Source of the DNA: Escherichia phage Ecwhy_1
Reading direction: 5' to 3' (one strand)
Sequence record: MH791411.1
Length of the DNA stretch: 64,000 bases
Shown here: positions 14,798 to 50,900 of the stretch, piece by piece
How positions within the stretch are numbered: position 1 is the stretch's first letter
Layout: the number at the start of each line of letters is the position of its first letter
Made by a program: the position numbers and the translations under genes
Notes under the pieces: model-generated
What the model saw: the letters and a program-made list of their open reading frames with translations, nothing else
Told to the model about the DNA's origin: nothing
Database searches by the model: none

Positions 14798-14854
14798 TAG
14801 ATAACCCTCAGTAAAGGCGGGAACTATTACCCGCCATTATCTCAGTACTGAATA

Positions 14855-15796: not shown

Positions 15797-15825
15797 TTTG
15801 TAACCCTCATTCAGTAGTTGATGTA

Positions 15826-15960: not shown

Positions 15961-16020
15961 AACATAGTTTGCAAGTACTTTTTAAAAATAGTTTTCAGTA
16001 CTGAATAGTAAAAAAAAGTA

Positions 16021-16081
16021 TTGACAGCATTATCAAGTACTGGTATAATATACCCCATGACAACAGCTAACCCACCGGGTG
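16021..16081 (+). promoter_or_regulatory. plus-strand consensus sigma70 promoter + conserved box
   Basis: TTGACA-N17-TATAAT (perfect consensus), ACCCACCGGGTGC box downstream. Confidence 0.6.
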
Positions 16082-16223
16082 CACAATTGTAACTATACTA
16101 AACTAATTTTTCTATAGATACACTCCCGCACCCTATGGGCTACGGCTTATCTGCCAATGAATACATTATGCCAGTACTGACAAAATAAGTCAATACCGGC
16201 AATTGTAAAGATTTGTAAACTGC

Positions 16224-16460
16224 TTATACTGCAATCGCGTCCAGGCTATAATAATAATAAGTGCCGTATTGGTGTACTTTATTACCTTTTATTTCAGTAC
16301 TGAATGAATCCGAACGGTTTGCATATGATGTTAATTTAAAGTACTTTGATTTGCTGATACGTTGCCATACACCACAGATCCGCTGTAAGTAAGTAGTTTT
16401 ATTCGTGGTAGTATCTTTTACGGTTTTAACTTCAGTCATATACATATTAGTCATTTTCAT
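16224..16460 (-). CDS. hypothetical protein (78 aa)
   Basis: ORF track; GGAG SD. Confidence 0.55.
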   Translation of the reverse strand: MKMTNMYMTEVKTVKDTTTNKTTYLQRICGVWQRISKSKYFKLTSYANRSDSFSTEIKGNKVHQYGTYYYYSLDAIAV

Positions 16461-16541
16461 TACTCCAGGTTATAGGCGGGAAGAGTTCCCGCTCTCGATG
16501 TAAAACATTATACGCCATTAAACATAGTTTGCAAGTACTTT
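16461..16541 (-). promoter_or_regulatory. PeSL-like cassette
   Basis: promoter + GCGGGAACTCTTCCCGC hairpin. Confidence 0.6.
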
Positions 16542-16808
16542 TTATTCAAGTACTGCAATCTTTTTAGTACGGTACACGGTCACGCGGTTGCCCTTTCGGT
16601 CGAGCTTTATTTCTACCACTCGACGCGATACACTATCGGGACTTTTTAAGGCCGCTAACCAGTACTGTAATGATCTGGCGGTACTACGCTTTACAATGGC
16701 CCAACGTTTACCACGTTCCGATTGTACGCCCATATCTTTAAACGTTGCCCCGTCCTGGCGTGCGGCGATCCGAGCTTGTTCACGCGTCGCAAAATACTTA
16801 ATTTTCAT
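16542..16808 (-). CDS. hypothetical protein; paralog of 3132-3527
   Basis: trimmed to MKIKYFATREQ. Confidence 0.6.
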   Translation of the reverse strand: MKIKYFATREQARIAARQDGATFKDMGVQSERGKRWAIVKRSTARSLQYWLAALKSPDSVSRRVVEIKLDRKGNRVTVYRTKKIAVLE

Positions 16809-16894
16809 GCTGTTGCCCTTATCGTTGGTGTATGAATAAAACACTATTATAAAGTACTATCGCAAAAAAATGATAGTACTTTAAATAAATTCTA

Positions 16895-17134
16895 TTACAT
16901 TCCAACCATCGCCGCACGGATCGCAGTAGTGCTATATTTGAATCCGTCCGGTGTTTTATCTTGTCCAGTCTGTTCTAAAAATAACATCATATGACGGGCC
17001 GCATCATTGCGATTAGTGCTATCGTTAATAAAGTCCTGGGCCAACCGATACAATCCCTCATCGTTATTAATCCAAAGGCTTACATTCCAATGAGTTTTGT
17101 TTTTGTGACCTAAGAACATTTTTGATTTAGCCAT
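16895..17134 (-). CDS. hypothetical protein; paralog of 14855-15094
   Basis: trimmed to MAKSKMF. Confidence 0.6.
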   Translation of the reverse strand: MAKSKMFLGHKNKTHWNVSLWINNDEGLYRLAQDFINDSTNRNDAARHMMLFLEQTGQDKTPDGFKYSTTAIRAAMVGM

Positions 17135-17227
17135 TTTTTTAATCCTCTTATATAGTGGGGAACTATTCCCCACCTGATGTAAAACATTATACGCCATTAA
17201 ACATAGTTTGCAAGTACTTTATTAAAC
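17135..17227 (-). promoter_or_regulatory. PeSL-like cassette
   Basis: promoter + GGGGAATAGTTCCCC hairpin. Confidence 0.6.
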
Positions 17228-17590
17228 TTATTTGTAAATTTTGCCACTGTCAGCCCATACCAGGAAACGAGGCATATTATCCCATGCATCTTGTTTTAAG
17301 TTTAAGCCGTGCAATTCCTCAGTTGTTGCCATCCCTGGTACTGGCTTACTACACACCGCGAAATTTTCGCCCATATACTGATAAACCATCGTCAAATCAT
17401 TTGAGATCATTATATGGATCATTGAATCCAGCATCAAAGTAGCGGCGTATTGTTCACGCTTAAGCGGCAACATTGCAATAAGTTCCCGATAAGCTGCAAT
17501 GTGAATTTTTACAGTTTCAGCCGGAAGACCTTTCATCTCATCGCGGAAGTTTACCAGGTTAAGCATGATTTTATTGATTTGAGTCGCCAT
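17228..17590 (-). CDS. hypothetical protein (120 aa)
   Basis: trimmed to MATQINK. Confidence 0.6.
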   Translation of the reverse strand: MATQINKIMLNLVNFRDEMKGLPAETVKIHIAAYRELIAMLPLKREQYAATLMLDSMIHIMISNDLTMVYQYMGENFAVCSKPVPGMATTEELHGLNLKQDAWDNMPRFLVWADSGKIYK

Positions 17591-17650
17591 CGTTTTAATC
17601 TCTCTTAATGTGTAGCGGGAAGTGTTCCCGCTCTCGATGTAAAACATTAT
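17591..17650 (-). promoter_or_regulatory. PeSL-like cassette
   Basis: promoter + GCGGGAACACTTCCCGC hairpin. Confidence 0.6.
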
Positions 17651-17702
17651 ACGCTTTTATCAGTACGGTGCAAGTACTTTCTACAAATACTTTTAAAATA
17701 GT

Positions 17703-17795
17703 TTTCTTTCTATATAGGAGTACTATTATTCAGTACTGCAATCATCCAGGGGAACTATCTTTCTATATAGGAGTACTATTATTCAGTACTGAATC
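17703..17795. repeat. two tandem copies of a ~33-bp direct repeat
   Basis: CTTTCTATATAGGAGTACTATTATTCAGTACTG repeated with ~53-bp period. Confidence 0.7.
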
Positions 17796-17953
17796 AATCC
17801 ACTAAATCATCCCTATACCCCGTAAAACGTCCTCAGACGCATTCTAACGCATTAATACACATAAGCTATACATTTGCACCATTCCAATCATTCCAGGGCT
17901 TTACAGGCCGTTTAAACGCGTTAAATTATTTTCAATTATTTTGTTTTTAGGTA

Positions 17954-18025
17954 TTGACTTGATCCTGAAAAAGCGTATAATTACTACATAGACGCGAGAA
18001 AGCGGATACCCCAGGGGGTGGGAAG
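17954..18025 (+). promoter_or_regulatory. plus-strand sigma70-type promoter
   Basis: TTGACT-N16/17-TATAAT. Confidence 0.5.
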
Positions 18026-18420: not shown

Positions 18421-18612
18421 TAGCCGTCTATACTTCCAGACGTGTAACCATCTAGCCGTTTAGCCGTCCAAACGTCTAGCCATCCAGCCATCCAGAAATC
18501 TAGCCGTTTAGCCGTCTAGATGGATAGCCATCTTTACTTCCAGACTTCTGGAGGGCTAGACATATCTACGCCCAAAATCCATCCAGGGTAACTACGCCCA
18601 AAATCCGTCAGT
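18421..18612. repeat. iteron-like array of interleaved short direct repeats
   Basis: TAGCCGT x5, CCATCCAG x3, CTACGCCCAAAATCC x2, ACTTCCAGAC x2; locally GC-richer. Confidence 0.65.
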
Positions 18613-24343: not shown

Positions 24344-25492
24344 ATGTTACCTTTTGTTAGAATGTTTGATTATGGGAATGAAGCACCTACCAACTCTGGG
24401 CGTTTTAAAATATATTCCAGTGATTCTATGTATCTTCATGATACTTATACTGACAAGTTGTATGCATCTTCTGCGACGAATTGGGGTACTGGTACAGGTG
24501 TAGCATCGAGTAAATTTATTCTTTGTGCGGAGAATGTTAAACGAGTTCTATTGGAAGATAACAGTAGTGATTGTCAATTGTATGAAGAGAAAGGTACTGG
24601 AAAAGTTTTTATCACTGGTAACACGAAGGCATTCACTGGTGTAACTGATAGAAAAACTTTGTGGACGGACTGTACTACGTGGATAACATCAAGTGGTATT
24701 AATGTTTCTGATATAAAATACATGAGTAGTTTTTATGATATGAAGGTGAATTTGATAACAAACGATGGTACATTGTATTGTTGTGGAGCTAACAATATAT
24801 CGAACATATCATCATTTGGTGATGGCACAAACATTAATTCTTTTAACACATTCAAAAGAGTAGATACTATAACTTCGGTTAAAAAGGCAGTTGGTAACAT
24901 TTATTTGCGAGAAGATAATACTTTATGGGGTTGTGGTTTTAACTATTACTACCAGTTGGGCACGGGTAATCAAACTTCTATTACTGGGGTGACGATGATT
25001 TCTTCGGATGTTATAGATTTTAATGTAAGTTATCAGAGTACATTTTTTATCAAATCGGATAATAATTTGTACGCTTGTGGTAAACAGTTCGGTGCACAAT
25101 ATGGGAACGAATTTGGTACAGGTGGTACTTCTACATCTACAGATATACAATATAAAACTCCCACATTATTGAGTGCAGGTGTTTATAGTTTATATACTTG
25201 TGTTGGTAACATGGCATCACATATAGTTAAAGGTGATGAAGTACTTTATGCATCTGGAAGCAACTCGTCTGGTCAATTAGGTGTTGGTAATAATAATAAT
25301 CAGTACTCCTATACTCCTTCATATACTTCGTTTAATACCTCTTGTAATTTGGTACGCACCCCATCTGGTTCACTTATACTTACTGATACTGGAAAATTAT
25401 ATTATTGTGGCCTTGCAATAGTAGTAATGGGTGGTATTTCTGGACAGAACGTTCTTAATTATACAGAAGTCGATATGTCATTTTTGCAGTAA
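24344..25492 (+). CDS. RCC1-like beta-propeller repeat protein, array member 1
   Basis: N-term MLPFVRMFDYGN; YYYQLGTGN and GQLGVGNN blade motifs. Confidence 0.85.
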   Translation: MLPFVRMFDYGNEAPTNSGRFKIYSSDSMYLHDTYTDKLYASSATNWGTGTGVASSKFILCAENVKRVLLEDNSSDCQLYEEKGTGKVFITGNTKAFTGVTDRKTLWTDCTTWITSSGINVSDIKYMSSFYDMKVNLITNDGTLYCCGANNISNISSFGDGTNINSFNTFKRVDTITSVKKAVGNIYLREDNTLWGCGFNYYYQLGTGNQTSITGVTMISSDVIDFNVSYQSTFFIKSDNNLYACGKQFGAQYGNEFGTGGTSTSTDIQYKTPTLLSAGVYSLYTCVGNMASHIVKGDEVLYASGSNSSGQLGVGNNNNQYSYTPSYTSFNTSCNLVRTPSGSLILTDTGKLYYCGLAIVVMGGISGQNVLNYTEVDMSFLQ

Positions 25493-25559
25493 ATTAATAT
25501 GCCAGTACTTGATACTGGCTTTTTTGATTAAATATAGTATAATGAATAAAGGAGGAAAT
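25493..25559 (+). promoter_or_regulatory. array intergenic cassette: terminator hairpin + TATAAT + AGGAGG
   Basis: GCCAGTAC-TTGA-TACTGGC + T-run, TTGATTAAATATAGTATAAT, AAAGGAGG. Confidence 0.65.
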
Positions 25560-36577: not shown

Positions 36578-37714
36578 ATGTTACCTTTTGCAAGAATGGT
36601 TAAGTACGGGAATATAAAAGTAAAGAGTACTATACAAAAAGTTATACTTGGTGGTGGTGGTCAATGTGTGGTAACATTACTCAGTGATGGTAGAGTGTAT
36701 GGACGTGGTTACAACACTACACATGGGTTAGGTACTGGTACAACAACATTCGTAAGTGATTGGGTATTAATGGGAGATAATATTGTTGATATCCATTCAA
36801 ATGGTGTTACTGGAACATTCCTTATTACCAAAGAAAATAGAATATTGTATTCTGGTTTTGCGACACCAATCAATGGCACAACATCACATTATACACGTTT
36901 CACTGATTTAACATCAACTGTATTTGCTGCGGTGGATGTTAGTAATATTAAAACAATTACGGGAAATGGTAATGTTACAATGGTTCTTTTGAATGATGGT
37001 TCACTTTATGGGAGTGGTGCAAATATAGGGGTTATAGGTAATGGTAGTAACGTTGCATTATCAACACAAACATATGTGACTAATGATGTGCGTGATGTGA
37101 AAACATATCCATCAATGAACACTATAACAAAAAATAATAATCAAATATTGGCTAGTGGTATTTTATACCAAGGCGTGAACGGTACAAATTCATCAATAAA
37201 CACGTCTTCATATACATTACTGTACACATTACCGAGTTCTGATTGTTTTCAATTTGCATTTGATACATATACATTTGGATATGTTGACCCTAGTACTAAC
37301 ACTTCTTATATAAGAGGTATACCAATAAATGGTTCATTAGGTAATGGCGTTACTAATAATACAGCAGTTACAACATGGGTTACTAAAGTTTGGAATACAC
37401 CAATTGATAGTTCTATACCTAATAAATCATATACAACTAACCATGTCTCCTTGTTCAATGATGGAAACTTATGGACAACTGGTGCATCTAGTGTAGGTTA
37501 TTCCAATGGTACAAATAGCACAACAGCTAATACATGGACCAGTTCATCTAATTTACCATTCAACACTAATAACATAACAGACTATGCTTTTGGTGGTAGT
37601 ATTACTGTAGTGGTAATCGACTACAGGACTATGTACATACTAGCTAACAACGCCATTGCTGGTACTGCTACGACAACTTATAAATTTGAGCCATATAATT
37701 CTCCACCAGTTTAA
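36578..37714 (+). CDS. RCC1-like repeat protein, array member 11
   Basis: MLPFARMVKYGN. Confidence 0.8.
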   Translation: MLPFARMVKYGNIKVKSTIQKVILGGGGQCVVTLLSDGRVYGRGYNTTHGLGTGTTTFVSDWVLMGDNIVDIHSNGVTGTFLITKENRILYSGFATPINGTTSHYTRFTDLTSTVFAAVDVSNIKTITGNGNVTMVLLNDGSLYGSGANIGVIGNGSNVALSTQTYVTNDVRDVKTYPSMNTITKNNNQILASGILYQGVNGTNSSINTSSYTLLYTLPSSDCFQFAFDTYTFGYVDPSTNTSYIRGIPINGSLGNGVTNNTAVTTWVTKVWNTPIDSSIPNKSYTTNHVSLFNDGNLWTTGASSVGYSNGTNSTTANTWTSSSNLPFNTNNITDYAFGGSITVVVIDYRTMYILANNAIAGTATTTYKFEPYNSPPV

Positions 37715-37746
37715 TATAATGCCAGTACTATGTACTGGCTTTTCTT
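37715..37746. terminator. terminator hairpin between convergent genes
   Basis: GCCAGTACTATGTACTGGC + T-run. Confidence 0.6.
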
Positions 37747-38397
37747 TTACATATTATATAATGTGAATGCAGTCACTTTACCAGTTGTTGTTAGTTCATT
37801 ATAAAGATACTCCAAGATTCTCGCACACTCTAAGTATATCTCGATATCATCATGAATAAGTGAGTACTGAAATAGCTGTTCTTCAGGTAATTTGTATTGA
37901 CTTCCTTTTAATGAATTGAGAATATCTTTCACATCATCAAGTACTGGGTAAAGTACGAAATCTTCATCATATTTTGAAGCAATAAATTCAAATCCACCAC
38001 CATCAGTACTAGATATACCAATCAGTACTTTATCAATCAAGTTAATGTTTATATAACGGTTGTGATTTGGGTGAATTGAAATCTCAAACATAAGAGTACT
38101 GTTACAATCAACATCAATATACAAATATACATCATTGAATTTATAAGTTAAGCAACCGTACTCAAGAAAATCAGAGCAAATAATTGATGAGTTTTTTCTC
38201 GTCTCTGCGTAATGCATCTTGATATTCTTTTCACGCATAAGTAATTCGAACTTTGCACTAAACTTGCCACCAGCAAGATAGTTAGTATTAGGACGTTTGT
38301 AACTTGCAACTGGTCGGTGGGATGATGTAAAGTATTTTTTTGTGAATCGTTTATGTTTAGTGAAATATTCTTGATAGAACTTACTTCTTTTATTCAT
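37747..38397 (-). CDS. hypothetical protein (216 aa), opposite strand inside array
   Basis: ORF track; GAGGT SD; divergent from array member 12. Confidence 0.6.
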   Translation of the reverse strand: MNKRSKFYQEYFTKHKRFTKKYFTSSHRPVASYKRPNTNYLAGGKFSAKFELLMREKNIKMHYAETRKNSSIICSDFLEYGCLTYKFNDVYLYIDVDCNSTLMFEISIHPNHNRYININLIDKVLIGISSTDGGGFEFIASKYDEDFVLYPVLDDVKDILNSLKGSQYKLPEEQLFQYSLIHDDIEIYLECARILEYLYNELTTTGKVTAFTLYNM

Positions 38398-38474
38398 GAG
38401 TACCTCAATTAAATCGCTGTAAAATTGTACATTATAAAATGATTAAATAAAGTATAACACAAGGAGATTTTATC

Positions 38475-39599
38475 ATGTTACCTTTCGTATTGTTATTTGA
38501 TTATGGGAACGAAAAACAAGAAAGTTCTTATGATGTTAGTGTATATGGAAACAATAACTACATTTTAAATAAACAAACTGGAAACCTTTTTGCATCCGGT
38601 GCTGCGGCATTCATGGGTGATAACACAGTTAAGTATTATATTACCCAAATAGAATCAAATGTTCATAGCTGTGAGATAGGTTTCCTATCATCATGGATAA
38701 TTAAGAAGGACAAAACTGTTTTCATTTTAGGAAACAAAAGCAGTATAGGATTAACTGGTTCGACAACATCATGGTTCGAAATTACAAATTTATTTTCTGC
38801 TGTTCCTGAAATATGGGACAACCTATTTGAATGTAAAGTTCAATTGGGATATAACTGTATACGTGTTATGACACCACTAGGATCAATCTATGCGATTGGT
38901 ACAAACACTTATGGTGCATTGGGTACTGGTACTACATCCTCATCAACTTCGTTCGTTAAAAGTGGTGCTGTGGATGCTGTACGCATGGAATCAACAGAAC
39001 GTTCAGTGTTCTATCAAAACAGTTCTGGACAATGGTTTGGATGTGGTGATAACACATATGGTATACTAGGTCTAGGAACTACCGCGAGTCGTGTAAACTC
39101 ATACACCGCACCAGTATGGACTAATGCAGAAGCTGTTAGCTTCTCTAACCGTGGGATCATATACAGCCTCAATGGTACTCTATACTCATGTGGTGACAAA
39201 GTTAATGGTCAGCTAGGGGATGGATATACACAAAGCATAGACGCTGCCAGGAGCACACCATACACCATAGGAACCGCATTCCAAATTGGTAAGGCAATAA
39301 CATCAGCTACACAAGCATCAGCCAACGTATTCATTGGTAAAGATAATAAGTTCTATGGTACTGGTAGTATTGCTGCTGGTATAAATGGTAGTGCTAGTGC
39401 TGCATTAAGTAAAGTTACTGCGTTATCAGCATCACTACCACCTGACATTACATACAATGATATTATAACATTTAATACAGGGACCGTAACTTTTATTCAA
39501 GCAAAAGGACAACTATATTATGTTGGTAGAAGAACTTACATAGATAATAGTTCAGACGTTACCACACAGTTCAGTGTAATTGGTGGCTTAGATAATTAA
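38475..39599 (+). CDS. RCC1-like repeat protein, array member 12
   Basis: MLPFVLLFDYGN; NTYGALGTGTT, NTYGILGLGTT, VNGQLGDGY. Confidence 0.85.
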   Translation: MLPFVLLFDYGNEKQESSYDVSVYGNNNYILNKQTGNLFASGAAAFMGDNTVKYYITQIESNVHSCEIGFLSSWIIKKDKTVFILGNKSSIGLTGSTTSWFEITNLFSAVPEIWDNLFECKVQLGYNCIRVMTPLGSIYAIGTNTYGALGTGTTSSSTSFVKSGAVDAVRMESTERSVFYQNSSGQWFGCGDNTYGILGLGTTASRVNSYTAPVWTNAEAVSFSNRGIIYSLNGTLYSCGDKVNGQLGDGYTQSIDAARSTPYTIGTAFQIGKAITSATQASANVFIGKDNKFYGTGSIAAGINGSASAALSKVTALSASLPPDITYNDIITFNTGTVTFIQAKGQLYYVGRRTYIDNSSDVTTQFSVIGGLDN

Positions 39600-39635
39600 A
39601 ATTAATCCAGTACTATTATAGTACTGGATTTTTTA
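39600..39635. terminator. bidirectional terminator candidate
   Basis: TCCAGTACTATTATAGTACTGGA hairpin flanked by T-runs between convergent genes. Confidence 0.6.
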
Positions 39636-40007
39636 TTATAACATACGTTTTTTACGAATAGTATTGTGGATATTTTTTAAGTAGTTCACACCTTTACACA
39701 ACCCATAAAATACACCAGCACATACACCAAATGCAGGTATCATACATGCAAACATCGTTATCAATTCCCACATCTCCATGCCATCTTGATTCGGTCCAAG
39801 GTCAAAGATAACAACCGAAACCAAACCTGTGATACTTAGCATATAATATGCCATGAAGATAATAAAAGAAACAATACCAACGTCAGATTTTACTGAATTT
39901 AGCATATTATATACTGGGGTTACACAGAAGTAATACAATAACCAAATCAAAGAACCTAAACTAAACACAATAATAGTAATGATTGAAAATATTTCACGAT
40001 AACTCAT
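39636..40007 (-). CDS. small polytopic membrane protein family, member (123 aa)
   Basis: 3-4 hydrophobic segments; basic C-terminus. Confidence 0.65.
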   Translation of the reverse strand: MSYREIFSIITIIVFSLGSLIWLLYYFCVTPVYNMLNSVKSDVGIVSFIIFMAYYMLSITGLVSVVIFDLGPNQDGMEMWELITMFACMIPAFGVCAGVFYGLCKGVNYLKNIHNTIRKKRML

Positions 40008-40008
40008 T

Positions 40009-40371
40009 TTAGTCCCTCGTGCCTAAACGCTCATGGATTTCGGAAATCTTATGATACATCCACGCCAGCAACTCAACGGATGCACAGAGAATAACCACAC
40101 ACAGTGTTAGTGAACATACCATAATACCAAATGTTATAAAATTCGAACTCGATGTTAATAATGCAACCAGCATTAGAATAAAACCAAAATTGAATGCTGT
40201 ACTCAACACAGTATATGCTGGACTATATCTCCTTTGTATTACATCATATATATTTGATAATGGTCGCTTATGGAAGTACTTCCCAATGCACACGAATGCA
40301 TTCAGTGAGAAGATAAATGTATACGCCATTACCATTAATTGACCAATAAAAGATAATTCAATATTATTCAT
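40009..40371 (-). CDS. small membrane protein family member (120 aa)
   Basis: hydrophobic segments; tightly coupled. Confidence 0.65.
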   Translation of the reverse strand: MNNIELSFIGQLMVMAYTFIFSLNAFVCIGKYFHKRPLSNIYDVIQRRYSPAYTVLSTAFNFGFILMLVALLTSSSNFITFGIMVCSLTLCVVILCASVELLAWMYHKISEIHERLGTRD

Positions 40372-40372
40372 G

Positions 40373-40744
40373 TTATCCTCGTTTGCGGTATTTGATGCTT
40401 TGGTGCATTCTCTGAAAATGTGGAACTAATACATATTGTACGGTTTGCCAAATTACCATCAGATTATGGACAGCACCACCGAGTAGACCAAACACTACAC
40501 AGATAATTGCCAGTACTGGATCACCATCTACCATACCCCATTTGAATATATGTAAAATCCATACAGTGATAAGTAGTAATAAACTAATCCAATACGTAGT
40601 AAAAAATCCTGCATGTAATTCATAGTCATCAGCAATTTCATCGTATACGGTTTCCAAGAAGGATACACAGAAGAACTTGCCAATAATAACAATTGTACTA
40701 ATAAACAACATAGCAGTTAATATAATAAGTGCAATTTCCATCAC
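40373..40744 (-). CDS. small membrane protein family member (123 aa)
   Basis: hydrophobic segments; tightly coupled. Confidence 0.65.
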   Translation of the reverse strand: MMEIALIILTAMLFISTIVIIGKFFCVSFLETVYDEIADDYELHAGFFTTYWISLLLLITVWILHIFKWGMVDGDPVLAIICVVFGLLGGAVHNLMVIWQTVQYVLVPHFQRMHQSIKYRKRG

Positions 40745-41055
40745 ATCCCTCGTTTACGCTTTTGATTGCGTCTAAATTCGGTTAGCCCACGAGTAATCGG
40801 TGGCATCAGACTACATAAAAAAATAACAGTTGTTGGTAATAACATGAAGTCAATCATTGCTGTATTAACAGGTGGTTCACATATCAAATAATACAAGCAA
40901 GTAATACTAATTATGGTTGACCCAATAAAAGGAATACAAAATTCTTTTATCTGTTTTTCAACATAATCAAACATCTTCAGTACAAATAAAAATCCAACCC
41001 AACACATAATAAAATAGAATGAATAAAGCGTGTAAATCAATGTTACGATATCCAT
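40741..41055 (-). CDS. small membrane protein family member (104 aa)
   Basis: hydrophobic segments; overlapping stop/start. Confidence 0.65.
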   Translation of the reverse strand: MDIVTLIYTLYSFYFIMCWVGFLFVLKMFDYVEKQIKEFCIPFIGSTIISITCLYYLICEPPVNTAMIDFMLLPTTVIFLCSLMPPITRGLTEFRRNQKRKRGM

Positions 41056-41393
41056 TAGTACCTCGCATCAGGAACTTTAGCACGTAATTTATGAACGACT
41101 GGGAACAACAACAAACTTACATATGCAATAGTTGAACCCCAATAGAATACTAATATAATTGGTTCACCATTGGAACGGAACCCTCTACTAATCATTGAGT
41201 AGTGAATAATTGGCATAATCATCGCCATACCAAACCATGCGTGTAATTTTAATTGCAACAGGTGTTCAGAGATGAATACTGAAATTGGTCGTTTGAAGAA
41301 CCACATAAGAAAGTAGAATCCAGCACTAAGAATATAGTACATAATACTAACTTTCATATACCACGGCAGTAAGTGTAAAAAATATTCCATCAT
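41055..41393 (-). CDS. small membrane protein family member (112 aa)
   Basis: C-term LRAKVPDARY. Confidence 0.65.
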   Translation of the reverse strand: MMEYFLHLLPWYMKVSIMYYILSAGFYFLMWFFKRPISVFISEHLLQLKLHAWFGMAMIMPIIHYSMISRGFRSNGEPIILVFYWGSTIAYVSLLLFPVVHKLRAKVPDARY

Positions 41394-41737
41394 TCCTCCG
41401 GTATCTTGTTTCGAAGTTCAATCATAACACAACAAATTTTAATGGTCAAGTAAAAAACTACACATATCATACCCAATGTACCGTAAACTGCGGAGAATGC
41501 TGGCAGTACCTTTCCTGTGAGTGTTGCTACAATACATGCTATCAATGTTGATGCAAACAACGATTGATTAATGAAAGAATTCATAAAATCTTCACCATTA
41601 CGCTTATAGAATTGTCGTTTAAAATACCATCCTAGAAACATAACTACCCAAAATGTTACATAACCTGTTAGAATAATCCCTGCAATTGAATGTGCAACAG
41701 AACTACTCTTTAAAAACTCAAGATAAGATTCAAACAT
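41390..41737 (-). CDS. small membrane protein family member (115 aa)
   Basis: C-term LRNKIPEE. Confidence 0.65.
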   Translation of the reverse strand: MFESYLEFLKSSSVAHSIAGIILTGYVTFWVVMFLGWYFKRQFYKRNGEDFMNSFINQSLFASTLIACIVATLTGKVLPAFSAVYGTLGMICVVFYLTIKICCVMIELRNKIPEE

Positions 41738-42075
41738 TAGAAGTCCCCACGAATTTTTGCTCTACCATTAATGATGAGATTAAACAAGTATATCAGCACC
41801 CAAATTAGTAATCCAAGGAATACAATATATTGTGATATTGAGTTCAACTGTGGATTAGCACAATAAATTAAGTGTGCGATAAGACCAACAATTGCAAACA
41901 TACCTTGGATAATAGTGAAAAGAAGTAGTGAAATGTTTCCATCAGGATACAGTTTGAAAACGATTTTCTTTTTAAAATACCATAGTACTACAACTAGTGC
42001 ATGATAAAAGAAAAAACCAAACAGATAAATCAAAGTAATACTAAGCATTGTATCTGAATTAAAAAACTCAAGCAT
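41737..42075 (-). CDS. small membrane protein family member (112 aa), first of operon
   Basis: AGGAG SD; TTGACA..TATAAC promoter upstream. Confidence 0.65.
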   Translation of the reverse strand: MLEFFNSDTMLSITLIYLFGFFFYHALVVVLWYFKKKIVFKLYPDGNISLLLFTIIQGMFAIVGLIAHLIYCANPQLNSISQYIVFLGLLIWVLIYLFNLIINGRAKIRGDF

Positions 42076-42142
42076 ATCGTATCTCCTGTGGTGAATATTA
42101 AGTTATAGTACTACACTATGGTAGTACTGTCAATACATGTAA
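42076..42142 (-). promoter_or_regulatory. promoter of membrane-protein operon
   Basis: minus strand TTGACA ~N19 TATAAC + AGGAG. Confidence 0.5.
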
Positions 42143-42913
42143 TTAAATTTTCTCAAGGAACAAGTTTTCGCACTGCTCTTCCCAATCATACGGATTGTTG
42201 TTGTATACTGCTGAAATCAACAGAGGCATACGCAGTGAAGGAGCACGAAGTGCATCTTCATGTTTCAGCATCCAATTCAGGATTGCTTTGCTACCATTAC
42301 TATTAACACCTTTAGTTGACAGGATGTTGGTCTTGTTCATTACGTTTTCAATGTGAATCATGATATCGCTTTTAGTCTGGATCTGTAAGTCAACATACAC
42401 AGAGCGAGACATAAGAGCAGCATAGTGAGCAGACATTTTGGTTTTAGCTTTAGCATTCAGTGCTAAATCTTTGTTAGTAATGAATACGATACGACCGTTA
42501 AAATCAAAGCTGTTAGGGATACCGTTGGTAGTTAAGTACTTAGAGCTAGTCATGTAAGACACAGTACGTTTACCGCTGTCCAGTACAGCTTTGAGCAGGT
42601 TCATACCGTCTTCTGAATCAAAGATGCTGTCCATATCATCCAGTACTAATACGTTGGTGCTGTGACGATTCTTGTACAGAACTTCATACAGAGCAAGAGT
42701 AGTCATCTTACCACTGATAGTAGCTACGTTCCATTCTGCTGCGTCATGAGCTTTCTGGAGGCGTTGTGACAGGGTGTAAGTCTTACCAACACCAGGTGCA
42801 CCGCTGACAACCATACTTTTTACAGTACTGTTATCGTCGAGCAAACACTCAAGAGCAACCATCATGGAGTTGAAGTTTTTCTGAATTTGAATGCTACGTG
42901 CTTCTCTGGTCAT
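42143..42913 (-). CDS. P-loop NTPase (AAA-type ATPase-like), 256 aa
   Basis: Walker A GAPGVGKT; Walker B-like VLVLDDMD. Confidence 0.75.
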   Translation of the reverse strand: MTREARSIQIQKNFNSMMVALECLLDDNSTVKSMVVSGAPGVGKTYTLSQRLQKAHDAAEWNVATISGKMTTLALYEVLYKNRHSTNVLVLDDMDSIFDSEDGMNLLKAVLDSGKRTVSYMTSSKYLTTNGIPNSFDFNGRIVFITNKDLALNAKAKTKMSAHYAALMSRSVYVDLQIQTKSDIMIHIENVMNKTNILSTKGVNSNGSKAILNWMLKHEDALRAPSLRMPLLISAVYNNNPYDWEEQCENLFLEKI

Positions 42914-42980
42914 TTCGTTATCCTCATCAATTGATGAAATAATTATAGCAAAAAGGGCTGACCTAAGTCAACCCTTTTGT
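42914..42980 (-). promoter_or_regulatory. class-B cassette: terminator hairpin overlapping promoter
   Basis: GGGTTGAC-loop-GTCAGCCC hairpin + T-run; TTGACT (in stem) ~N18 TATAAT; GAGGA SD. Confidence 0.6.
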
Positions 42981-44324
42981 TTAGTTTTGTTTCACCCCAC
43001 CCCATTTTTCATAGATGGCAATAATTTTATCTATGTTGTTTGGTGTAGTTGTTTCTGTATACCCATCCCCCACCTCTCTTTTAGTGAAGATTGGACAAAA
43101 CTGCCTTTTACATTCATTTTCTGCGTTAGTACAATTTCCAACACTTGGAAAGCGATACGAATACATTGGTTTTATATCAAAAATACTATTCAAATTTTGT
43201 TTTGAAACTCGATTGCCCTTTACTGTTTCTTTTCCATATTTCACACCAACACATACCCCGCTGTCCATTATTACATGAATATATGTATATGTTGCACACT
43301 TTCCGGCATCATATGGGTTACCTTGATGTTTATCTAAAAAGTTCGTTATAGATGTTTTATATGGTAAATTATTACTACTCCCCATCAACATTATGTTAGT
43401 TTTCTGATTTGGTTTTTCTGGATTGTGTTCAAACCCTATAAATTTATCATTTGAATTACGAAATTCTAATTCCTTTTTTATACGATATACATACTGTGAT
43501 TTAGTCCAGTGGAAATTAGTTGAACACCTACACGGTATAATATGTGCAGATGATAAATCATTTAGTGTTGCGTAGAATACACCATCACATACACCAGCTT
43601 GTACATATTCATCATAACTACACTTCGCACACACAAATTTGTATAAACGATAATTTCCCCTCATCTTTTCTGATGGTTGAATTGTAAATTCATTAGTTAA
43701 ATGACCATTATTATTAATTTTATCTATATGATATTGTAGTGGTTTAGAGTTAGTTTTAGTTATTGACTCTTTTTTACATTTCATACAACCAAATGTTTTA
43801 TTTTTTGATGTTAACGTATTAATATTAGAAATCGAACAAAACACATTATGTTTGTTACAATAAATTAGTATCTCAGTGTTGGTAGCATTAATTTTATCAT
43901 AAGAACCAAGACCCAATAATGTATATATCCCACCACTGAATTTTTTGAATTGTTCAATAATAGTCATAATATGTTGTGTATTTGTTTTCTTTGTCCACTT
44001 TGTTGCAGATTTCTTTTTAGTAATATGTATGGAGTTTATTCCCAATCCATATATTAAACCATTCGGGACATCATATTTTTTAAGATAGTGTTTACTATTA
44101 TTGTAAATGAAATATCCCAAAATCGAGTTATCATTATTGGAAAAATCATCTTGGGGTAATTTATTAAAATCCATATGGTTGAAATCTTTTGTTGGATGGC
44201 GTTCTGATAAAATAATACGAGTTATTTTATCAGAATCGACCATTTTTGAACAAATTGTAATTCTAACATCTTGTATGAAATTCAATTTGGTACATTTAAA
44301 AGGTACTTTAATATCAACACGCAT
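42981..44324 (-). CDS. Cys-rich hypothetical protein (447 aa)
   Basis: ORF track; several CxxC/CxC pairs; no confident family assignment. Confidence 0.65.
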   Translation of the reverse strand: MRVDIKVPFKCTKLNFIQDVRITICSKMVDSDKITRIILSERHPTKDFNHMDFNKLPQDDFSNNDNSILGYFIYNNSKHYLKKYDVPNGLIYGLGINSIHITKKKSATKWTKKTNTQHIMTIIEQFKKFSGGIYTLLGLGSYDKINATNTEILIYCNKHNVFCSISNINTLTSKNKTFGCMKCKKESITKTNSKPLQYHIDKINNNGHLTNEFTIQPSEKMRGNYRLYKFVCAKCSYDEYVQAGVCDGVFYATLNDLSSAHIIPCRCSTNFHWTKSQYVYRIKKELEFRNSNDKFIGFEHNPEKPNQKTNIMLMGSSNNLPYKTSITNFLDKHQGNPYDAGKCATYTYIHVIMDSGVCVGVKYGKETVKGNRVSKQNLNSIFDIKPMYSYRFPSVGNCTNAENECKRQFCPIFTKREVGDGYTETTTPNNIDKIIAIYEKWGGVKQN

Positions 44325-44553
44325 TACTTAAAACTCCTTTCCAGTACTGAACCCGTCCAGCACCATTAATCTTAGCTTGAATCTTATCTTTTTCGACAAG
44401 ACCTTCTTTGTAATCGATGGAAGTATTATCGCACTGAATTACATCTAAGTCAAGTACTTCTTGTGTACTTAATGAAGTATTGTCTGCAATTTGTTGTAAT
44501 GTAATGATATCAGTACCGAAGAATTCTGCTAAACGTATAAAAGATAGTTTCAT
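44314..44553 (-). CDS. hypothetical protein (79 aa)
   Basis: ORF track; overlaps start of 447-aa gene. Confidence 0.55.
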   Translation of the reverse strand: MKLSFIRLAEFFGTDIITLQQIADNTSLSTQEVLDLDVIQCDNTSIDYKEGLVEKDKIQAKINGAGRVQYWKGVLSNAC

Positions 44554-44673
44554 GTATTGCCTCTTGAGATGATGAAATAATTATAGCAAAAAGGGCTGAC
44601 CTAAGTCAACCCTGTTTTAAAGTTTTTTTAATATGTTGATAACGACGGTATGTATTCACCATCTGTCATCATT
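44554..44673 (-). promoter_or_regulatory. class-B cassette
   Basis: same ~45 bp as 42925-42975. Confidence 0.6.
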
Positions 44674-45411
44674 TCACACGATATCCCCATATGGTTTAAT
44701 TGTTTTTAGACACCAAGGAATAGGAATCCCATATTCAGAACCCCATAAATCTGAATAAGAATTATAGAGTTCACCAAGTTCTTTCATCTGTTCATAGTTG
44801 TTCAACAACTGATATTGAAAGTCTAAGCCTTCATCCCCAACTGGTACAAACTTATTACCAAGTAGGTTATTTTTTACTTTACCTATATGTATGCCATGTG
44901 TCGCATCAGATATCGTCCCATCACTTTCTAACCAAAACGATCCATCATATGATCCACTACCTCTACGAATATAAATTCTTTCTCCATATGGAACAATAGC
45001 TGGAGTTGTCATATCATGCAATGCATTATTGTACTTATTATCTTTATCAAAAGTATTAATACTACCTTCAGAAAAAGATTTATTATTAGAAAGAATAAAG
45101 TATGCCATATCATTTATTAATTGTGATGGAACCCATCCATGCGAATCACCATCAGAACCTACGTTGTAATAAGTAATTTCGTTTCCTAATTTATCAACTG
45201 TAATATCAATATCATATACAGGAAATGACCCACTATAACGTTCATAACCATGAGCATCGAATGTTAAATATCCATTATTATCTAATATCATACTATAAGT
45301 ACTATTATTAATAACAATAGTAAGTTCTTTTTGTTTTCCACATTTTAAGGTAGTTCGCGAATAAGTTAATTCATAATATGTTTTGTATAAGTAATGTTCT
45401 TCTATCAACAT
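44674..45411 (-). CDS. hypothetical protein (245 aa)
   Basis: ORF track. Confidence 0.6.
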   Translation of the reverse strand: MLIEEHYLYKTYYELTYSRTTLKCGKQKELTIVINNSTYSMILDNNGYLTFDAHGYERYSGSFPVYDIDITVDKLGNEITYYNVGSDGDSHGWVPSQLINDMAYFILSNNKSFSEGSINTFDKDNKYNNALHDMTTPAIVPYGERIYIRRGSGSYDGSFWLESDGTISDATHGIHIGKVKNNLLGNKFVPVGDEGLDFQYQLLNNYEQMKELGELYNSYSDLWGSEYGIPIPWCLKTIKPYGDIV

Positions 45412-45609
45412 TTAAATATCCTTGTTGGATAATCATAACGTTAGTTCGTTAATGATTATTATATAAAGGATGATAACTAACTATTTTTCAAGTTAATATA
45501 TTCACCCCATAAATTATATATATTGTTTTCAACACAATCATCATCGCTTAATTCTATCATTGACGATATAAGTACTGAATAGTTCATTACACATCTGTCA
45601 CTACATCAA

Positions 45610-45804
45610 CTAATCCTCACTGAAAACAACAATAAGGAATGACACGAACAATGCCGCATAACAAGGAGCTATCTTCATGTACCACGGGACTTCATAATAC
45701 CATGTACCCAATTCATCCCACGAAAAGAGTATACTCACACCGAAGCCGATTAGCGATAGTACAATAAAAGAAATCCAGAAACGCTTTGAATATACTAATA
45801 ACAT
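45610..45804 (-). CDS. small membrane peptide (64 aa)
   Basis: two hydrophobic segments. Confidence 0.5.
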   Translation of the reverse strand: MLLVYSKRFWISFIVLSLIGFGVSILFSWDELGTWYYEVPWYMKIAPCYAALFVSFLIVVFSED

Positions 45805-45842
45805 GTTATGTTCCTTTGTGTGACCGAAGTTAACCCTTACCT

Positions 45843-46358
45843 TTAATAATTATTCATTTCATCTTTGATTTGTTCTTCAATTTCGTCGAACATATCAGTA
45901 CTAGATTCTATATTACTACTTACGTCCTGCATATCTTTAACGTACTGTGGGCGTTCAACGTCAGTAAATTTATACCACATAGGCTTCATATGGAGCTTCT
46001 CAATCAAACGCTCACGAGACATTTTAATCTCTGACTCCGATGGTACGTAGTCATTACAAAACTCAGCAGGGAAGCCGCTAATGTCGTTTACTTCAGTGTT
46101 TTGAATCTTCATCCCACGACGCAAACATTCGTTAACAATATCAATATGACGCTTCTGTAAGTACAATAACTTGTTGTAGAAGAATGTTACATGACCTGAA
46201 CCTAACAGGTAAGTACTGTTAATTTTGAAATCACGGACTCGCTTACGTGCTTGAACATGTTTTTGTACAGCACCAAACACACGTGGGAGTTCACGATATT
46301 CAGCCATCAGATGTTGGTCAGCAAGTTCTTTAACGTGTACTAAGTTAATGCGTGTCAT
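45843..46358 (-). CDS. denV: endonuclease V (pyrimidine-dimer DNA glycosylase), T4 DenV homolog
   Basis: [42 protein letters not shown] recalled T4 DenV signature; extra ~33-aa acidic C-terminus. Confidence 0.85.
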
Positions 46359-46430
46359 GTATTCATCCTCTCGTTTCGATGAAATGATTATAGCAAAAAG
46401 GGCTGACCGAAGTCAACCCGTTTTGAAAGG
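46359..46430 (-). promoter_or_regulatory. class-B cassette
   Basis: GGGTTGACTTCGGTCAGCCC hairpin + T-run + TATAAT. Confidence 0.6.
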
Positions 46431-46700
46431 ATTTTTTAATGGTTTTCGTACTGTATGTATTTTGCTTTGTAGTTCTTCTTCCCACAAAACATTTATATTA
46501 TAAACTAAATCATTGTAGTCACTGTTCACAAAGATAAAATCATACTTCTCATTAAAAGTATGAGAAATCAATTGCATTTTCATAAGTATTATTGAACTTT
46601 TAAATTTATATGTTTCTTTTTCTTCTCCAGTTTTTGAACTTTGTATATTTTTTATAAATTCCATGAATTCATCATTGGTCATTGTTTCAGCATCCAACAA
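46413..46700 (-). CDS. hypothetical protein (95 aa)
   Basis: ORF track; 3-prime end runs into cassette hairpin. Confidence 0.5.
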   Translation of the reverse strand: MLDAETMTNDEFMEFIKNIQSSKTGEEKETYKFKSSIILMKMQLISHTFNEKYDFIFVNSDYNDLVYNINVLWEEELQSKIHTVRKPLKNPFKTG

Positions 46701-46977
46701 TACCCAACTTCACAATCTCATACCCATCCAAATATCCATATGAACACTCAGGCGTTTCATAAGATGAACCATCATGGATGCCCTGGCATTGACTTTTGGA
46801 ATTCTCAAGCAATCGTTGCAGTACTGATACGTCATCAAGAACGTAATACAAGTTAGCATATAGGTCCGTTACAATACAGTACTCCAACATGTCAAATGTA
46901 TCAATCGAAATTTCAACCTTAGCAAATTGTTTCTTTTCTTTATTATACAGTGCGTACATATTAATCTCCATAATCAA
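46687..46977 (-). CDS. hypothetical protein (96 aa)
   Basis: ORF track. Confidence 0.5.
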   Translation of the reverse strand: MIMEINMYALYNKEKKQFAKVEISIDTFDMLEYCIVTDLYANLYYVLDDVSVLQRLLENSKSQCQGIHDGSSYETPECSYGYLDGYEIVKLGIVGC

Positions 46978-47332
46978 GTTTAACTAACTTACCACCCAGA
47001 TACCCAAAGTTTTCTGGCTTCGCATCTGAATAGAAGAAGTCAGTACTCAACTCTGAATCCAATGCTAAAGCACACAACTCCACCCAAAATAAACCCCTAT
47101 GTTGTACTGGCTTACAACGTTTCTGTACAGTTACTAGTCCAGTACATGATGACCACAACGTAGGGCAGATACCACTATCACTACGCTTGGAGTACTGCAT
47201 CCAAGAACGTTCATTGAGGTTAGCTATCATCCCTGTTAAGAATAGCTTCCAACTTTTAAAGGTTGGAATCTTGATAGCATATTCCCCAATGAGTATGACA
47301 GTTCGTGTTGCACCTTTCAAATCTATATTCAT
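46961..47332 (-). CDS. hypothetical protein with kinase-like catalytic motifs (123 aa)
   Basis: DAKPENFGY..KLVKLDYGD resembles kinase catalytic loop + DFG; too short for full kinase. Confidence 0.45.
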   Translation of the reverse strand: MNIDLKGATRTVILIGEYAIKIPTFKSWKLFLTGMIANLNERSWMQYSKRSDSGICPTLWSSCTGLVTVQKRCKPVQHRGLFWVELCALALDSELSTDFFYSDAKPENFGYLGGKLVKLDYGD

Positions 47333-47341
47333 ATTTTTTAA

Positions 47342-47593
47342 TTAGAAGAACACAAACCAAGTCCAGAATAAATTCCACACTACAAATAAAGACATAGTGG
47401 TTTTATGTACAATATCAGCAGTACTGGTCCATCCTCCACCGTGTCCTATTCCATTTATGAATAGAACTAAGAACAAGATACCATTTACTACAATAGTACA
47501 TAGTAAGTACACAAACACATTCCATGCAAGTTCAGGGGATACTAACGTAAATGGTAAAACAATTAGTAGTATTAGAACTAATAAAATTTTCAT
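47342..47593 (-). CDS. small membrane protein (83 aa)
   Basis: hydrophobic throughout. Confidence 0.55.
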   Translation of the reverse strand: MKILLVLILLIVLPFTLVSPELAWNVFVYLLCTIVVNGILFLVLFINGIGHGGGWTSTADIVHKTTMSLFVVWNLFWTWFVFF

Positions 47594-50834: not shown

Positions 50835-50900
50835 GTTTGCCTCCAGTAGTTGATGAAATGATTATAGCAAAAAGGGCCGACCGAAGTCAACCCTTTTCTT
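50835..50900 (-). promoter_or_regulatory. class-B cassette
   Basis: GGGTTGACTTCGGTCGGCCC hairpin + T-run + TATAAT. Confidence 0.6.

Follow-up and report, generated by a model that had tools for sequence, protein, structure and literature searches.

A predicted T5orf172-type homing endonuclease gene beside an NrdC.10-family ATPase gene and putative composite terminator-promoter cassettes in the jumbo coliphage Ecwhy_1

Results

Organization of the locus

The early-gene region of Escherichia phage Ecwhy_1 examined here contains three independent features lying side by side: a selfish gene for a predicted homing endonuclease of the T5orf172 type, located in an insertion hot spot; a conserved ATPase gene of the NrdC.10 type; and generic cassettes, each combining a putative intrinsic terminator with a putative sigma-70 promoter. 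We consider that this combination of unrelated parts, with the ATPase independent of the endonuclease, is the best explanation of the locus, with a probability of roughly 0.8. All coordinates refer to the window, the whole 64,000-nucleotide stretch that was analyzed (MH791411.1), which represents an Asteriusvirus-type jumbo coliphage of the PBECO4/121Q/phAPEC6 group. The flanks were matched at 88-98% by 46 Asteriusvirus-type records.

An earlier note on this DNA had described an ATPase gene, a gene for a 447-aa protein with several CxxC motifs, and a 79-aa ORF, all three enclosed by two repeats at 42925-42975 and 44570-44620. The three ORFs were confirmed, all on the minus strand, and an exact 44-bp direct repeat was verified, although the intervals proposed for it were out of register: the copies occupy 42932-42975 and 44570-44613, with a spacing of 1,638 bp. 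The stretch between them holds the 447-aa and 79-aa ORFs but not the ATPase gene, which is outside the pair, downstream of the 42932-42975 copy. The features are as follows.

42143..42913, minus strand: NrdC.10-family AAA+ ATPase gene, 256 aa (phrog_1250, NrdC.10 homology)
42932..42975, minus strand: cassette copy 1 (exact repeat, promoter scan, RNA fold)
42981..44324, minus strand: predicted free-standing homing endonuclease gene of the T5orf172 type, 447 aa (phrog_681, homology breaks, empty site, GC)
42984..43295, minus strand: C-terminal nuclease domain, aa 344-447, T5orf172/GIY-YIG superfamily (family alignment)
43521..43676, minus strand: CapR-homology zinc finger, aa 217-268, C232xxC235...C265xC267 (Pfam PF21817)
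43776..43859, minus strand: DUF723/DUF4379-like zinc ribbon, C156xxH159...C180xxC183 (family alignment)
44314..44553, minus strand: conserved 79-aa ORF, phrog_34150 (E 1.5e-54)
44570..44613, minus strand: cassette copy 2, identical to copy 1 (exact repeat, promoter scan, RNA fold)
46380-46423, 50851-50894, from 53894, and from 57488: further members of the cassette family
1586, 4856, 8866, 45812, 51551, and 53132: more diverged members of the cassette family

Domain architecture of the 447-aa protein

The 447-aa protein matched phrog_681, annotated as 'endonuclease' (1.7e-29), and profile comparison together with a structure model, along the lines of the check that had been proposed for it, revealed a GIY-YIG/T5orf172 fold at its C-terminus. 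The AF2 model of this protein had a pLDDT above 90 over residues 340-447 and low confidence for the first 113 residues. In the family alignment (15-16 homologues), Y348, G364, R372, E402, and E424 were invariant, with Y363 preceding G364; these residues correspond to the GIY tyrosine, the YIG Tyr-Gly, the arginine, and the glutamate of such enzymes and are putatively catalytic. The Pfam models T5orf172 and MUG113 did not match the 447-aa protein itself at E<=1, so that the T5orf172 assignment rests on the fold, the conserved residues, and transitive profile homology; hhalign linked it (98.8%, E 8e-17) to a protein that passes the Pfam T5orf172 model. No PDB sequence matched the 447-aa protein at E<=10, and an NCBIfam search with four ORFs gave no meaningful match.

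The motifs CMKC, CAKC, CRC, and CNKH were all found in the ORF. The CapR-homology region scored 28.8 bits against Pfam PF21817, compared to a gathering score of 24.2, and its cysteines follow the CxxC...CxC motif described for CapR (PMC10448857); this finger is a predicted sequence-specific DNA-binding module. At the zinc ribbon, the family alignment showed the consensus CxxHG...GCxxC, and homologues match DUF723 and DUF4379. Two of the four zinc modules present in homologues, the N-terminal one and one at about residues 310-343, are degenerate and have lost their cysteines; together with the poorly modeled N-terminus, this suggests that DNA binding may be impaired or retargeted. According to the proposed mechanism, the zinc ribbon and the CapR finger would recognize a DNA site, and the C-terminal GIY-YIG-superfamily domain would cut.

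The GC content is 25-31% inside the 447-aa gene vs 39-43% in the ATPase gene. Family members elsewhere adjoin DNA ligase or PhoH genes on their 3' side. The Ecwhy_1 allele is rare, and GenBank phage proteins reached at most about 32% identity to it.

The endonuclease gene occupies a variable slot behind a conserved ORF

The endonuclease gene takes up precisely the space that separates the 79-aa stop codon from the terminator hairpin. It lacks its own promoter, and its ATG is located within the end of the 79-aa ORF, so that the two genes overlap by 11 nt, and its Shine-Dalgarno sequence AAGGAG belongs to the conserved 3' end of that ORF. The slot was surveyed in the 27 phage records carrying the 79-aa ORF (93-98% nucleotide identity), 23 of which contained both anchors; three Asteriusvirus records with the ATPase but no megablast match to the 79-aa ORF fall outside this survey.

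In nine relatives, homology breaks precisely at the ends of the 447-aa ORF. Four Salmonella Asteriusviruses (SD-15_S21, SD-1_S14, SD-2_S15, and SD-6_S16) have an empty site, in which the anchors are 65-66 bp apart, compared to 1,410 bp in Ecwhy_1, and the junction lies between ...GTCAACCCTTTTTT and TACTTAAAACTCC. When the alleles of the 79-aa ORF were aligned, its C-terminus was found to vary with the inserted gene, ending in ...LSNAC in Ecwhy_1 and, where the site is empty, in ...LSKKRVDFGRPFLL (88 aa); the inserted endonuclease gene rewrites the last codons of this ORF. Presence or absence of the gene between conserved flanks is the hallmark of a free-standing homing endonuclease gene. The earlier suggestion of an accessory module holds for the 447-aa gene, which some close relatives have, some lack, and others have replaced, and finds no support for the ATPase.

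Other occupants of the slot are HNH (phrog_559) or T5orf172 genes, single or paired, in at least nine size classes. T5orf172, HNH, and paired occupants have in common a borrowed Shine-Dalgarno sequence and an ATG overlapping the stop codon of the host ORF. In BLASTP comparisons, the 447-aa protein showed no similarity to the HNH occupant or to the 365-aa occupant of BF17, only a weak match (E 0.001) in the middle zinc-ribbon region to the 471-aa occupant of BF17, and no match to the 259-aa T5orf172 protein of L006, to which it is linked by profile comparison only. Among relatives that share this endonuclease gene, L015 is the nearest; its copy, set in a second genomic background, differs at 1 synonymous position over 1,344 nt, and there the flanks diverge more than the endonuclease gene and the next upstream slot holds other content.

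These data are consistent with homing. The endonuclease gene would have entered precisely between the final codons of the 79-aa ORF and the hairpin, where it would borrow the promoter and the Shine-Dalgarno sequence of that ORF. In a mixed infection, the enzyme would cut near this site in a relative whose slot is empty or otherwise filled, and repair from the endonuclease-bearing genome would copy the gene and flanking markers into the rival genome. The term exclusion, used in the earlier note, is loosely apt in that homing endonucleases bias inheritance against competing genomes; an exclusion module formed by the ATPase and the cysteine-rich protein is unsupported.

We also considered that the 447-aa protein might be a T5orf172/CapR protein co-opted for another role and not, or no longer, a homing element, serving either as a sequence-specific anti-rival or anti-satellite nuclease like ICP1 Odn or as a DNA-binding regulator like PLE CapR. 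The combination of two degenerate finger modules with intact nuclease residues, and the position of the gene under a predicted early sigma-70 promoter, would fit such a role. However, the precise presence/absence pattern, the replacement by unrelated endonucleases, and the low GC content form the signature of a selfish insert and not of a retained function, and the allele is rare, with no GenBank phage match over 32% identity; we regard co-option as unlikely.

Unrelated endonuclease families start at an identical position in the slot. This could alternatively reflect exchange of slot contents by ordinary flanking recombination instead of homing by each enzyme.

Composite cassettes at predicted transcription-unit boundaries

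The exact repeat had no equal in 100 dinucleotide-preserving shuffles, none of which contained a 44-bp match. Read on the minus (coding) strand, the cassettes consist of a 9-12-bp hairpin followed by a T-run, with an embedded sigma-70 promoter (TTGACT-18-TGcTATAAT). Copy 1 has the hairpin AGGGTTGAC-TTAG-GTCAGCCCT and, after it, T5; its -35 hexamer TTGACT (42971-42966) lies within the hairpin, and the extended -10 element TGcTATAAT ends at 42942. The promoter scan gave 11/12 with the TG motif at four successive copies, including copies 1 and 2. RNA folding yielded -20.2 kcal/mol (z -3.7) for copy 1 and -16.0 kcal/mol (z -4.0) for copy 2, with cassette hairpins overall ranging from -16 to -20 kcal/mol (z between -3.7 and -4.9), and the G17 record annotates the orthologous hairpins as terminators. 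An Rfam search of 39000-47500 at E<=0.1 found no RNA families.

The cassettes are thus predicted to act as composite intrinsic terminators and sigma-70 promoters. They are not special to this locus: the same family, with at least 12 members, recurs at many other positions of the window and is generic at many transcription-unit boundaries; full copies number at least six and partial ones about 12. Copy 2 is predicted to end the denV/64-aa/245-aa unit and to start the unit formed by the 79-aa ORF and the endonuclease gene; copy 1 would end the latter and start the ATPase unit. In each case, the hairpin with its T-run would close the upstream unit and the promoter in the same DNA would open the next one, splitting the minus strand into short units.

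In L015, the loop of the hairpin reads TTCG in one cassette copy and TTAG in the other, and the perfect identity of copies 1 and 2 is peculiar to the Ecwhy_1 genome. Homology to all relatives ends at 44613, the upstream edge of copy 2, and a second variable segment (44614-45599), which is replaced between relatives, begins exactly there. Mismatches to L015 cluster at 44521-44602.

A transposon-like unit marked by the repeat pair was rejected because the boundaries of the polymorphism fall away from the repeats. It is very improbable that the 1,638-bp unit, comprising the 79-aa ORF plus the endonuclease gene, is a mobile cassette of the PeSL type, recombining between its flanking repeats via mini-circles, as in T4-type phages. 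The unit is indeed flanked by two perfectly identical 44-bp direct repeats, the combination of a stem-loop with a sigma-70 promoter and a Shine-Dalgarno sequence resembles PeSLs, and the cassette-edge start of the 44614-45599 segment, together with the clustered L015 mismatches, points to recombination near cassettes. However, those 23 of the 27 records retain both anchors, the segment that varies comprises nothing but the endonuclease ORF, with boundaries at its start and stop codons and not in the cassettes, and the whole 1,638-bp unit is missing from none of the relatives examined.

The ATPase is a conserved neighbor

The Walker A (GAPGVGKT, G38-T45) and Walker B (VLVLDDMD, V88-D95) motifs reported earlier for the ATPase were confirmed, and sensor 1 (N147) and a candidate arginine finger (the invariant R170) complete the elements of an AAA+ fold. 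The protein matched phrog_1250 (E 6.8e-103) and NrdC.10 of the T4-type phage AR1 (38% identity, E 6e-59, over residues 9-254). The matches begin at position 77/327 of the phrog_1250 profile and at AR1 residue 79; the Ecwhy_1 protein is a short form lacking the N-terminal extension (75-80 aa) of T4-type members and of the PHROG profile. The gene heads a transcription unit with seven small membrane-protein genes downstream, and its family comprises 1,305 phage records.

Comparison with relatives, which had been proposed as a check of the module, separated the two genes: the ATPase is retained, still 92-99% identical, where the endonuclease slot is empty or refilled with unrelated endonucleases. 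Gene neighborhoods of distant ATPase homologues showed no recurrent partner, and ATPase identity showed no clear co-conversion pattern with the type of slot occupant. The ATPase is best seen as a conserved NrdC.10-family phage protein, apparently a neighbor and not a partner of the selfish gene.

A two-component nucleic-acid enzyme or exclusion/anti-defense system made of the ATPase and the cysteine-rich nuclease, which would agree with two adjacent genes on the same strand, with the known AAA+/P-loop ATPase-nuclease pairs of defense systems, and with the synteny of 79-aa ORF, homologous endonuclease, and ATPase in a relative whose ATPase is 64% identical, appears largely refuted by the comparative data, since a predicted terminator-promoter cassette separates the genes, the ATPase is kept at the same high identity beside empty slots or HNH genes, about 1,300 phages have members of its family without such a partner, endonuclease homologues adjoin ligase, PhoH, or other genes, and PADLOC yielded only insignificant P-loop-level matches for the ATPase (E 1e-3 and 3e-3) and none for the 447-aa protein. 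From the pair proposed in the earlier note, the nuclease fold survives; its pairing with the ATPase finds no support, and the two genes are not co-inherited as a defense or anti-defense pair would be.

Discussion

The 447-aa protein, the cassettes, and the ATPase all appear, judged by their sequences, to be of known kinds, and the comparative data reveal no functional ATPase-nuclease pair; no new mechanism is opened, and a new defense or anti-defense system is not supported. Nevertheless, three 'hypothetical' jumbo-phage genes gain firm assignments, and mis-annotations of the ATPase ('thioredoxin', 'clamp loader', and 'FleQ') can be corrected to NrdC.10-family AAA+. Predicted T5orf172/CapR homing endonucleases, so far mainly characterized in ICP1, also populate Asteriusvirus genomes, and a single slot with at least nine occupancy states, including empty alleles, offers ready substrates for mapping cleavage sites. 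More tentatively, and we think it rather doubtful, the slot may be a dedicated 'landing pad' for rival endonuclease families, with the cassettes acting as PeSL-like recombination anchors outside the T4 group; if true, this would provide a natural system for studying competition between endonucleases and cassette-mediated shuffling in jumbo phages.

T4 NrdC.10 is described as a conserved ORF with an AAA motif and no assigned function (Nolan 2006, PMC1524935). The Ecwhy_1 ATPase resembles it in sequence (38% identity), AAA+ fold, Walker A/B motifs, and membership of phrog_1250, but lacks the N-terminal extension of 75-80 residues and is followed by tandem small membrane proteins.

The cassettes are closest to the PeSL motifs of T4-like phages, conserved composite promoter-terminator elements of about 45-70 bp (Arbiol 2010, PMC2839356; Comeau 2014, PMC4122927), in which a stem-loop is likewise combined with a near-consensus sigma-70 promoter and a Shine-Dalgarno element and which recur where short early transcription units meet in variable regions. 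One Ecwhy_1 cassette copy also coincides with a segment replacement (44614-45599). In PeSLs, however, the stem-loop is situated just upstream of the promoter, whereas the -35 hexamer of the Ecwhy_1 cassette is inside the stem-loop; moreover, the Ecwhy_1 phage is not T4-like, and the limits of its endonuclease polymorphism do not lie at the cassettes.

Like the T4 Seg (GIY-YIG) and Mob (HNH) genes, which are believed to spread in mixed infections through cleavage of the allele that lacks the endonuclease, the 447-aa gene is an intergenic, promoter-less gene amid conserved genes and is present or absent in close relatives. In the T4-like phage AR1, a seg-type gene abuts nrdC.10. The domain order differs, as Seg proteins have an N-terminal nuclease domain and a C-terminal DNA-binding region; in the 447-aa protein this order is reversed, and zinc fingers are present.

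Closer in architecture are the T5orf172-family homing endonucleases of vibriophage ICP1, Gp165, Gp174, Gp121, Gp53, and Gp130 (Netter 2021, PMC8096241; Barth 2023, PMC10448857). These also combine N-terminal CapR/DUF723/DUF4379 zinc-finger repeats with a C-terminal T5orf172 domain, are encoded by free-standing genes adjoining conserved genes, and have gained, lost, or degenerate repeat modules. The nuclease domain of the 447-aa protein, in contrast, has diverged too far to match the Pfam T5orf172 model, and its phage belongs to the Asteriusvirus jumbo coliphages, of which the ICP1 T5orf172 survey makes no mention.

A counterpart in the same slot is phAPEC6 gp019, with its slurp01 homologue (628 aa, annotated as 'exonuclease ABC C subunit'), which begins at the same start position and has a C-terminal nuclease domain 57% identical to that of the 447-aa protein. 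Because its N-terminal 500 residues are unrelated and carry another set of DNA-binding repeats, gp019 presumably represents a different specificity or allele.

Organization of the ATPase-endonuclease locus

All genes between 39.6 and 47.3 kb were located on the minus strand, and the locus contained the following features.

Features of the locus
42143-42913, minus: ORF of a 256-aa ATPase, with GAPGVGKT at aa 38-45 and VLVLDDMD at aa 88-95
42981-44324, minus: ORF of a 447-aa Cys-rich protein, with CNKH...CMKC, CAKC...CRC and further cysteines
44314-44553, minus: 79-aa ORF, its final 11 nt shared with the start of the 447-aa ORF
42932-42975 and 44570-44613, minus: exact 44-bp repeat (chance expectation, none)
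50851-50894: third repeat copy, with 3 mismatches (chance expectation, none)

The ATPase motifs described in the earlier note were thus borne out, and the cassette copies that it called near-identical were exactly alike over 44 bp. Its proposal of a module bracketed by these cassettes held for the 447-aa and 79-aa ORFs only; the ATPase gene lay outside the repeat pair, so the observation was only partly confirmed.

The flanks matched 46 records of Asteriusvirus-type jumbo coliphages at 88-98% (PBECO4, 121Q, phAPEC6, G17, BF17, TH47 and others), and the middle of the 2.7-kb query was missing, which kept coverage in every record to about half at most. In pairwise alignments with nine relatives, homology spanned the ATPase gene and cassette to 42981-42986, restarted at 44321-44324 and ran to 44613, so that the variation coincides precisely with the 447-aa ORF.

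Identification of the 447-aa protein

The 447-aa gene probably encodes a T5orf172/CapR homing endonuclease occupying an insertion hot spot. The nuclease fold sought in this protein was recovered: it matched phrog_681 'endonuclease' (E 1.7e-29), and its family profile aligned with a neighbouring protein of the distant relative L006 (98.8% probability, E 8e-17) that itself passes the Pfam T5orf172 threshold. A Pfam CapR homology domain scored above threshold at aa 217-268, and its 15 database homologues carried CapR, DUF723 and DUF4379 zinc-finger domains, a few of them matching T5orf172 or MUG113. The homologues have four finger modules, two of which lack cysteines in the 447-aa protein. Y348, G364, R372, E402 and E424, all within the final 100 residues, were invariant in the family alignment and correspond to the signature of GIY-YIG-superfamily nucleases (Tyr / Tyr-Gly / Arg / Glu). 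The AlphaFold model reached pLDDT >90 in the C-terminal part, and residues 1-113 were poorly modelled. By tblastn, 320 phage records contained relatives, none reaching 60% identity and the best at 31.6%; the allele is thus without precedent among GenBank phages, the T5orf172/CapR architecture being known already. Metagenomes hold identical or near-identical copies.

Variability of the insertion slot

To size the slot between the 79-aa ORF and the ATPase-side cassette, the distance from the 79-aa ORF to the 5' end of the ATPase gene was taken in 23 phage records and reduced by ~66 bp, the constant contribution of cassette and spacer. With PBECO4 and 121Q represented by two records each, the survey covered 21 distinct phages.

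Insert size in the slot
~0 bp: Salmonella phages SD-15_S21, SD-1_S14, SD-2_S15, SD-6_S16
~1120 bp: G17, Sharanji, JP4, vB_Ec-M-J
~1150 bp: TH47
1344 bp: window (size unique in the survey)
~1430 bp: SHEFM2K, BAU.Micro_ELP-22
~1500 bp: PBECO4, WPEC5
~1700 bp: A4
~1880 bp: 121Q, UB, slurp01, phAPEC6
~1960 bp: E9.1
~2470 bp: BF17, Turkey3

In the empty slot of SD-15_S21 the small ORF runs directly up against the terminator hairpin (...GTCAACCCTTTTTT/TACTTAAAACTCC) and continues through it, reaching 88 aa versus 79. The occupants examined fell into three groups: HNH-type endonucleases (phrog_559/9084); another T5orf172 protein, phAPEC6 gp019, which resembles the 447-aa protein solely in the nuclease domain (57% identity); and gene pairs. 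All start at the same ATG, formed at ...AGTAA/TG; 9 nt upstream of it, the conserved 3' end of the 79-aa ORF contains AAGGAG. GC content was 25-31% within the 447-aa gene versus 39-43% in the ATPase gene. In the metagenomic contig L015, the endonuclease gene differs from that of the window at one synonymous position out of 1,344 nt, whereas the flanks diverge more and the next upstream slot holds different content. A more distant relative, whose ATPase is 64% identical, encodes a homologue of 34% identity at the same position and also has a second T5orf172 gene. The WPEC5 slot (L002 3983-5482) holds several short ORFs of 60-115 aa rather than one long gene; they resemble the remains of a decayed endonuclease gene, such as the late phase of the homing-endonuclease life cycle would be expected to leave.

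A co-opted nuclease or regulator, Odn- or CapR-like, would be a possible but disfavoured reading of the 447-aa protein, given the presence, absence and replacement of the slot gene among relatives.

Predicted terminator-promoter cassettes

On the coding strand, the repeat reads AGGGTTGAC-TTAG-GTCAGCCCT-TTTTTGC-TATAAT-TATTTCATCA. A hairpin of 9-12 bp is followed by a T-run (-16 to -20 kcal/mol; z -3.7 to -4.9 versus shuffles) and overlaps a predicted sigma-70 promoter, with TTGACT within the hairpin, an 18-nt spacer and TG-n-TATAAT.

Predicted cassette promoters (score 11/12 each)
42971-42942, minus
44609-44580, minus
46416-46387, minus
50890-50861, minus

The window contained at least six full and about 12 partial copies, and orthologous hairpins carry terminator annotation in the G17 GenBank record. 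On these grounds the repeats are probably generic terminator-promoter cassettes at transcription-unit boundaries. An Rfam search of the cassette region matched no family.

A 1,638-bp unit moving as a whole, in the manner of the promoter-early stem-loop (PeSL) elements of T4-like phages, would agree with the neighbouring segment 44614-45599 starting exactly at the cassette edge (44613); however, this reading is disfavoured because no relative examined lacked the whole unit and the polymorphism end points fall outside the cassettes.

This 986-bp segment stands in place of a 661-bp segment (119-aa and 65-aa ORFs) in L015, G17 and vB_Ec-M-J, and mismatches to L015 are concentrated beside it, at 44521-44602. 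It contains a 245-aa ORFan (44674-45411, minus, GC 25-29%) that had no match in Pfam, PHROG, NCBIfam or PADLOC, nor by tblastn in 50,697 phage records; its sole database match was the identical 'hypothetical protein Ecwhy1_540' of Escherichia phage Ecwhy_1.

Other repeats were also observed. A 'class A' family in window 1-18000 (at least 16 copies), longer than and different from the 44-bp cassettes, has promoter-like boxes TTGCAAGTAC...TATAATGTTTTACATC and then a GGGGAGAA-loop-TTCTCCCC hairpin that follows the -10 instead of enclosing the -35. A tandem array with ~8-bp period (CGTCTAGC/CATCCAGC-like units) lies at 18425-18576. Twelve tandem paralogous genes (about 360-414 aa, ~1.2-kb spacing) occupy 24344-39599 on the plus strand; relatives annotate them as RCC1/ATS1-like 'regulator of chromosome condensation', and most are individually equipped with a conserved promoter (TAAATATAGTATAAT), a Shine-Dalgarno sequence and a hairpin (GCCAGTACT..AGTACTGGC).

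Independence of the ATPase

The ATPase belongs to phrog_1250 (E 6.8e-103) and shares 38% identity (E 6e-59) with NrdC.10 of the T4-like phage AR1, lacking the first ~78 residues of the latter. T4 nrdC.10 is known solely as a conserved AAA-motif ORF (PMC1524935). Homologues occurred in 1,305 phage records by tblastn, most of them T4-like and Rak2-like; the product is wrongly labelled there, variously as a thioredoxin, a clamp loader or FleQ. The two Walker motifs (A and B), sensor-1 N147 and R170 were invariant.

The earlier suggestion that ATPase and nuclease act as a pair is essentially excluded: the ATPase gene is kept at 92-99% identity in relatives whatever the slot holds and has its own predicted cassette promoter, and PADLOC returned nothing significant. 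No nuclease recurred in the gene neighbourhoods of distant ATPase homologues. The ATPase is thus independent of the slot endonuclease.

In AR1 (L014 3767-5229), nrdC.10 is overlapped at its end by a GIY-YIG endonuclease gene of seg type, so that a selfish nuclease lies independently beside this conserved gene; together with the window, selfish nucleases therefore adjoin it in two unrelated phage groups.

Directly downstream of the ATPase gene of the window, in the same transcription unit, lie seven tandem genes for hydrophobic proteins of 104-123 aa (39636-42075, minus), apparently paralogous and multi-pass membrane proteins, without Pfam matches. A bidirectional hairpin (39604-39630) closes the unit, and the arrangement is kept in all relatives examined and in L006.

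Proposed mechanism and comparison with known systems

Most likely, the 44570-44613 cassette would end the upstream denV unit and start a short transcript of the 79-aa ORF and endonuclease, the latter translated from the Shine-Dalgarno sequence of the host ORF and the overlapping ATG. The 42932-42975 cassette would end this transcript and start the ATPase/membrane-protein operon. During mixed infection, the zinc fingers may bind near an unoccupied or foreign junction, which would be cut, and recombinational repair would copy the endonuclease gene into the rival genome.

Such endonuclease genes reportedly tend to adjoin conserved genes, in agreement with family members found elsewhere downstream of DNA ligase or PhoH genes. 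The cassettes are similar to PeSL elements (PMC4122927); unlike in those, the -35 sits inside the stem-loop. The architecture of the 447-aa protein is that of the homing endonucleases of the ICP1 vibriophage and many other phages, in which zinc-finger CapR/DUF723/DUF4379 modules precede a C-terminal T5orf172 domain (PMC8096241; PMC10448857).
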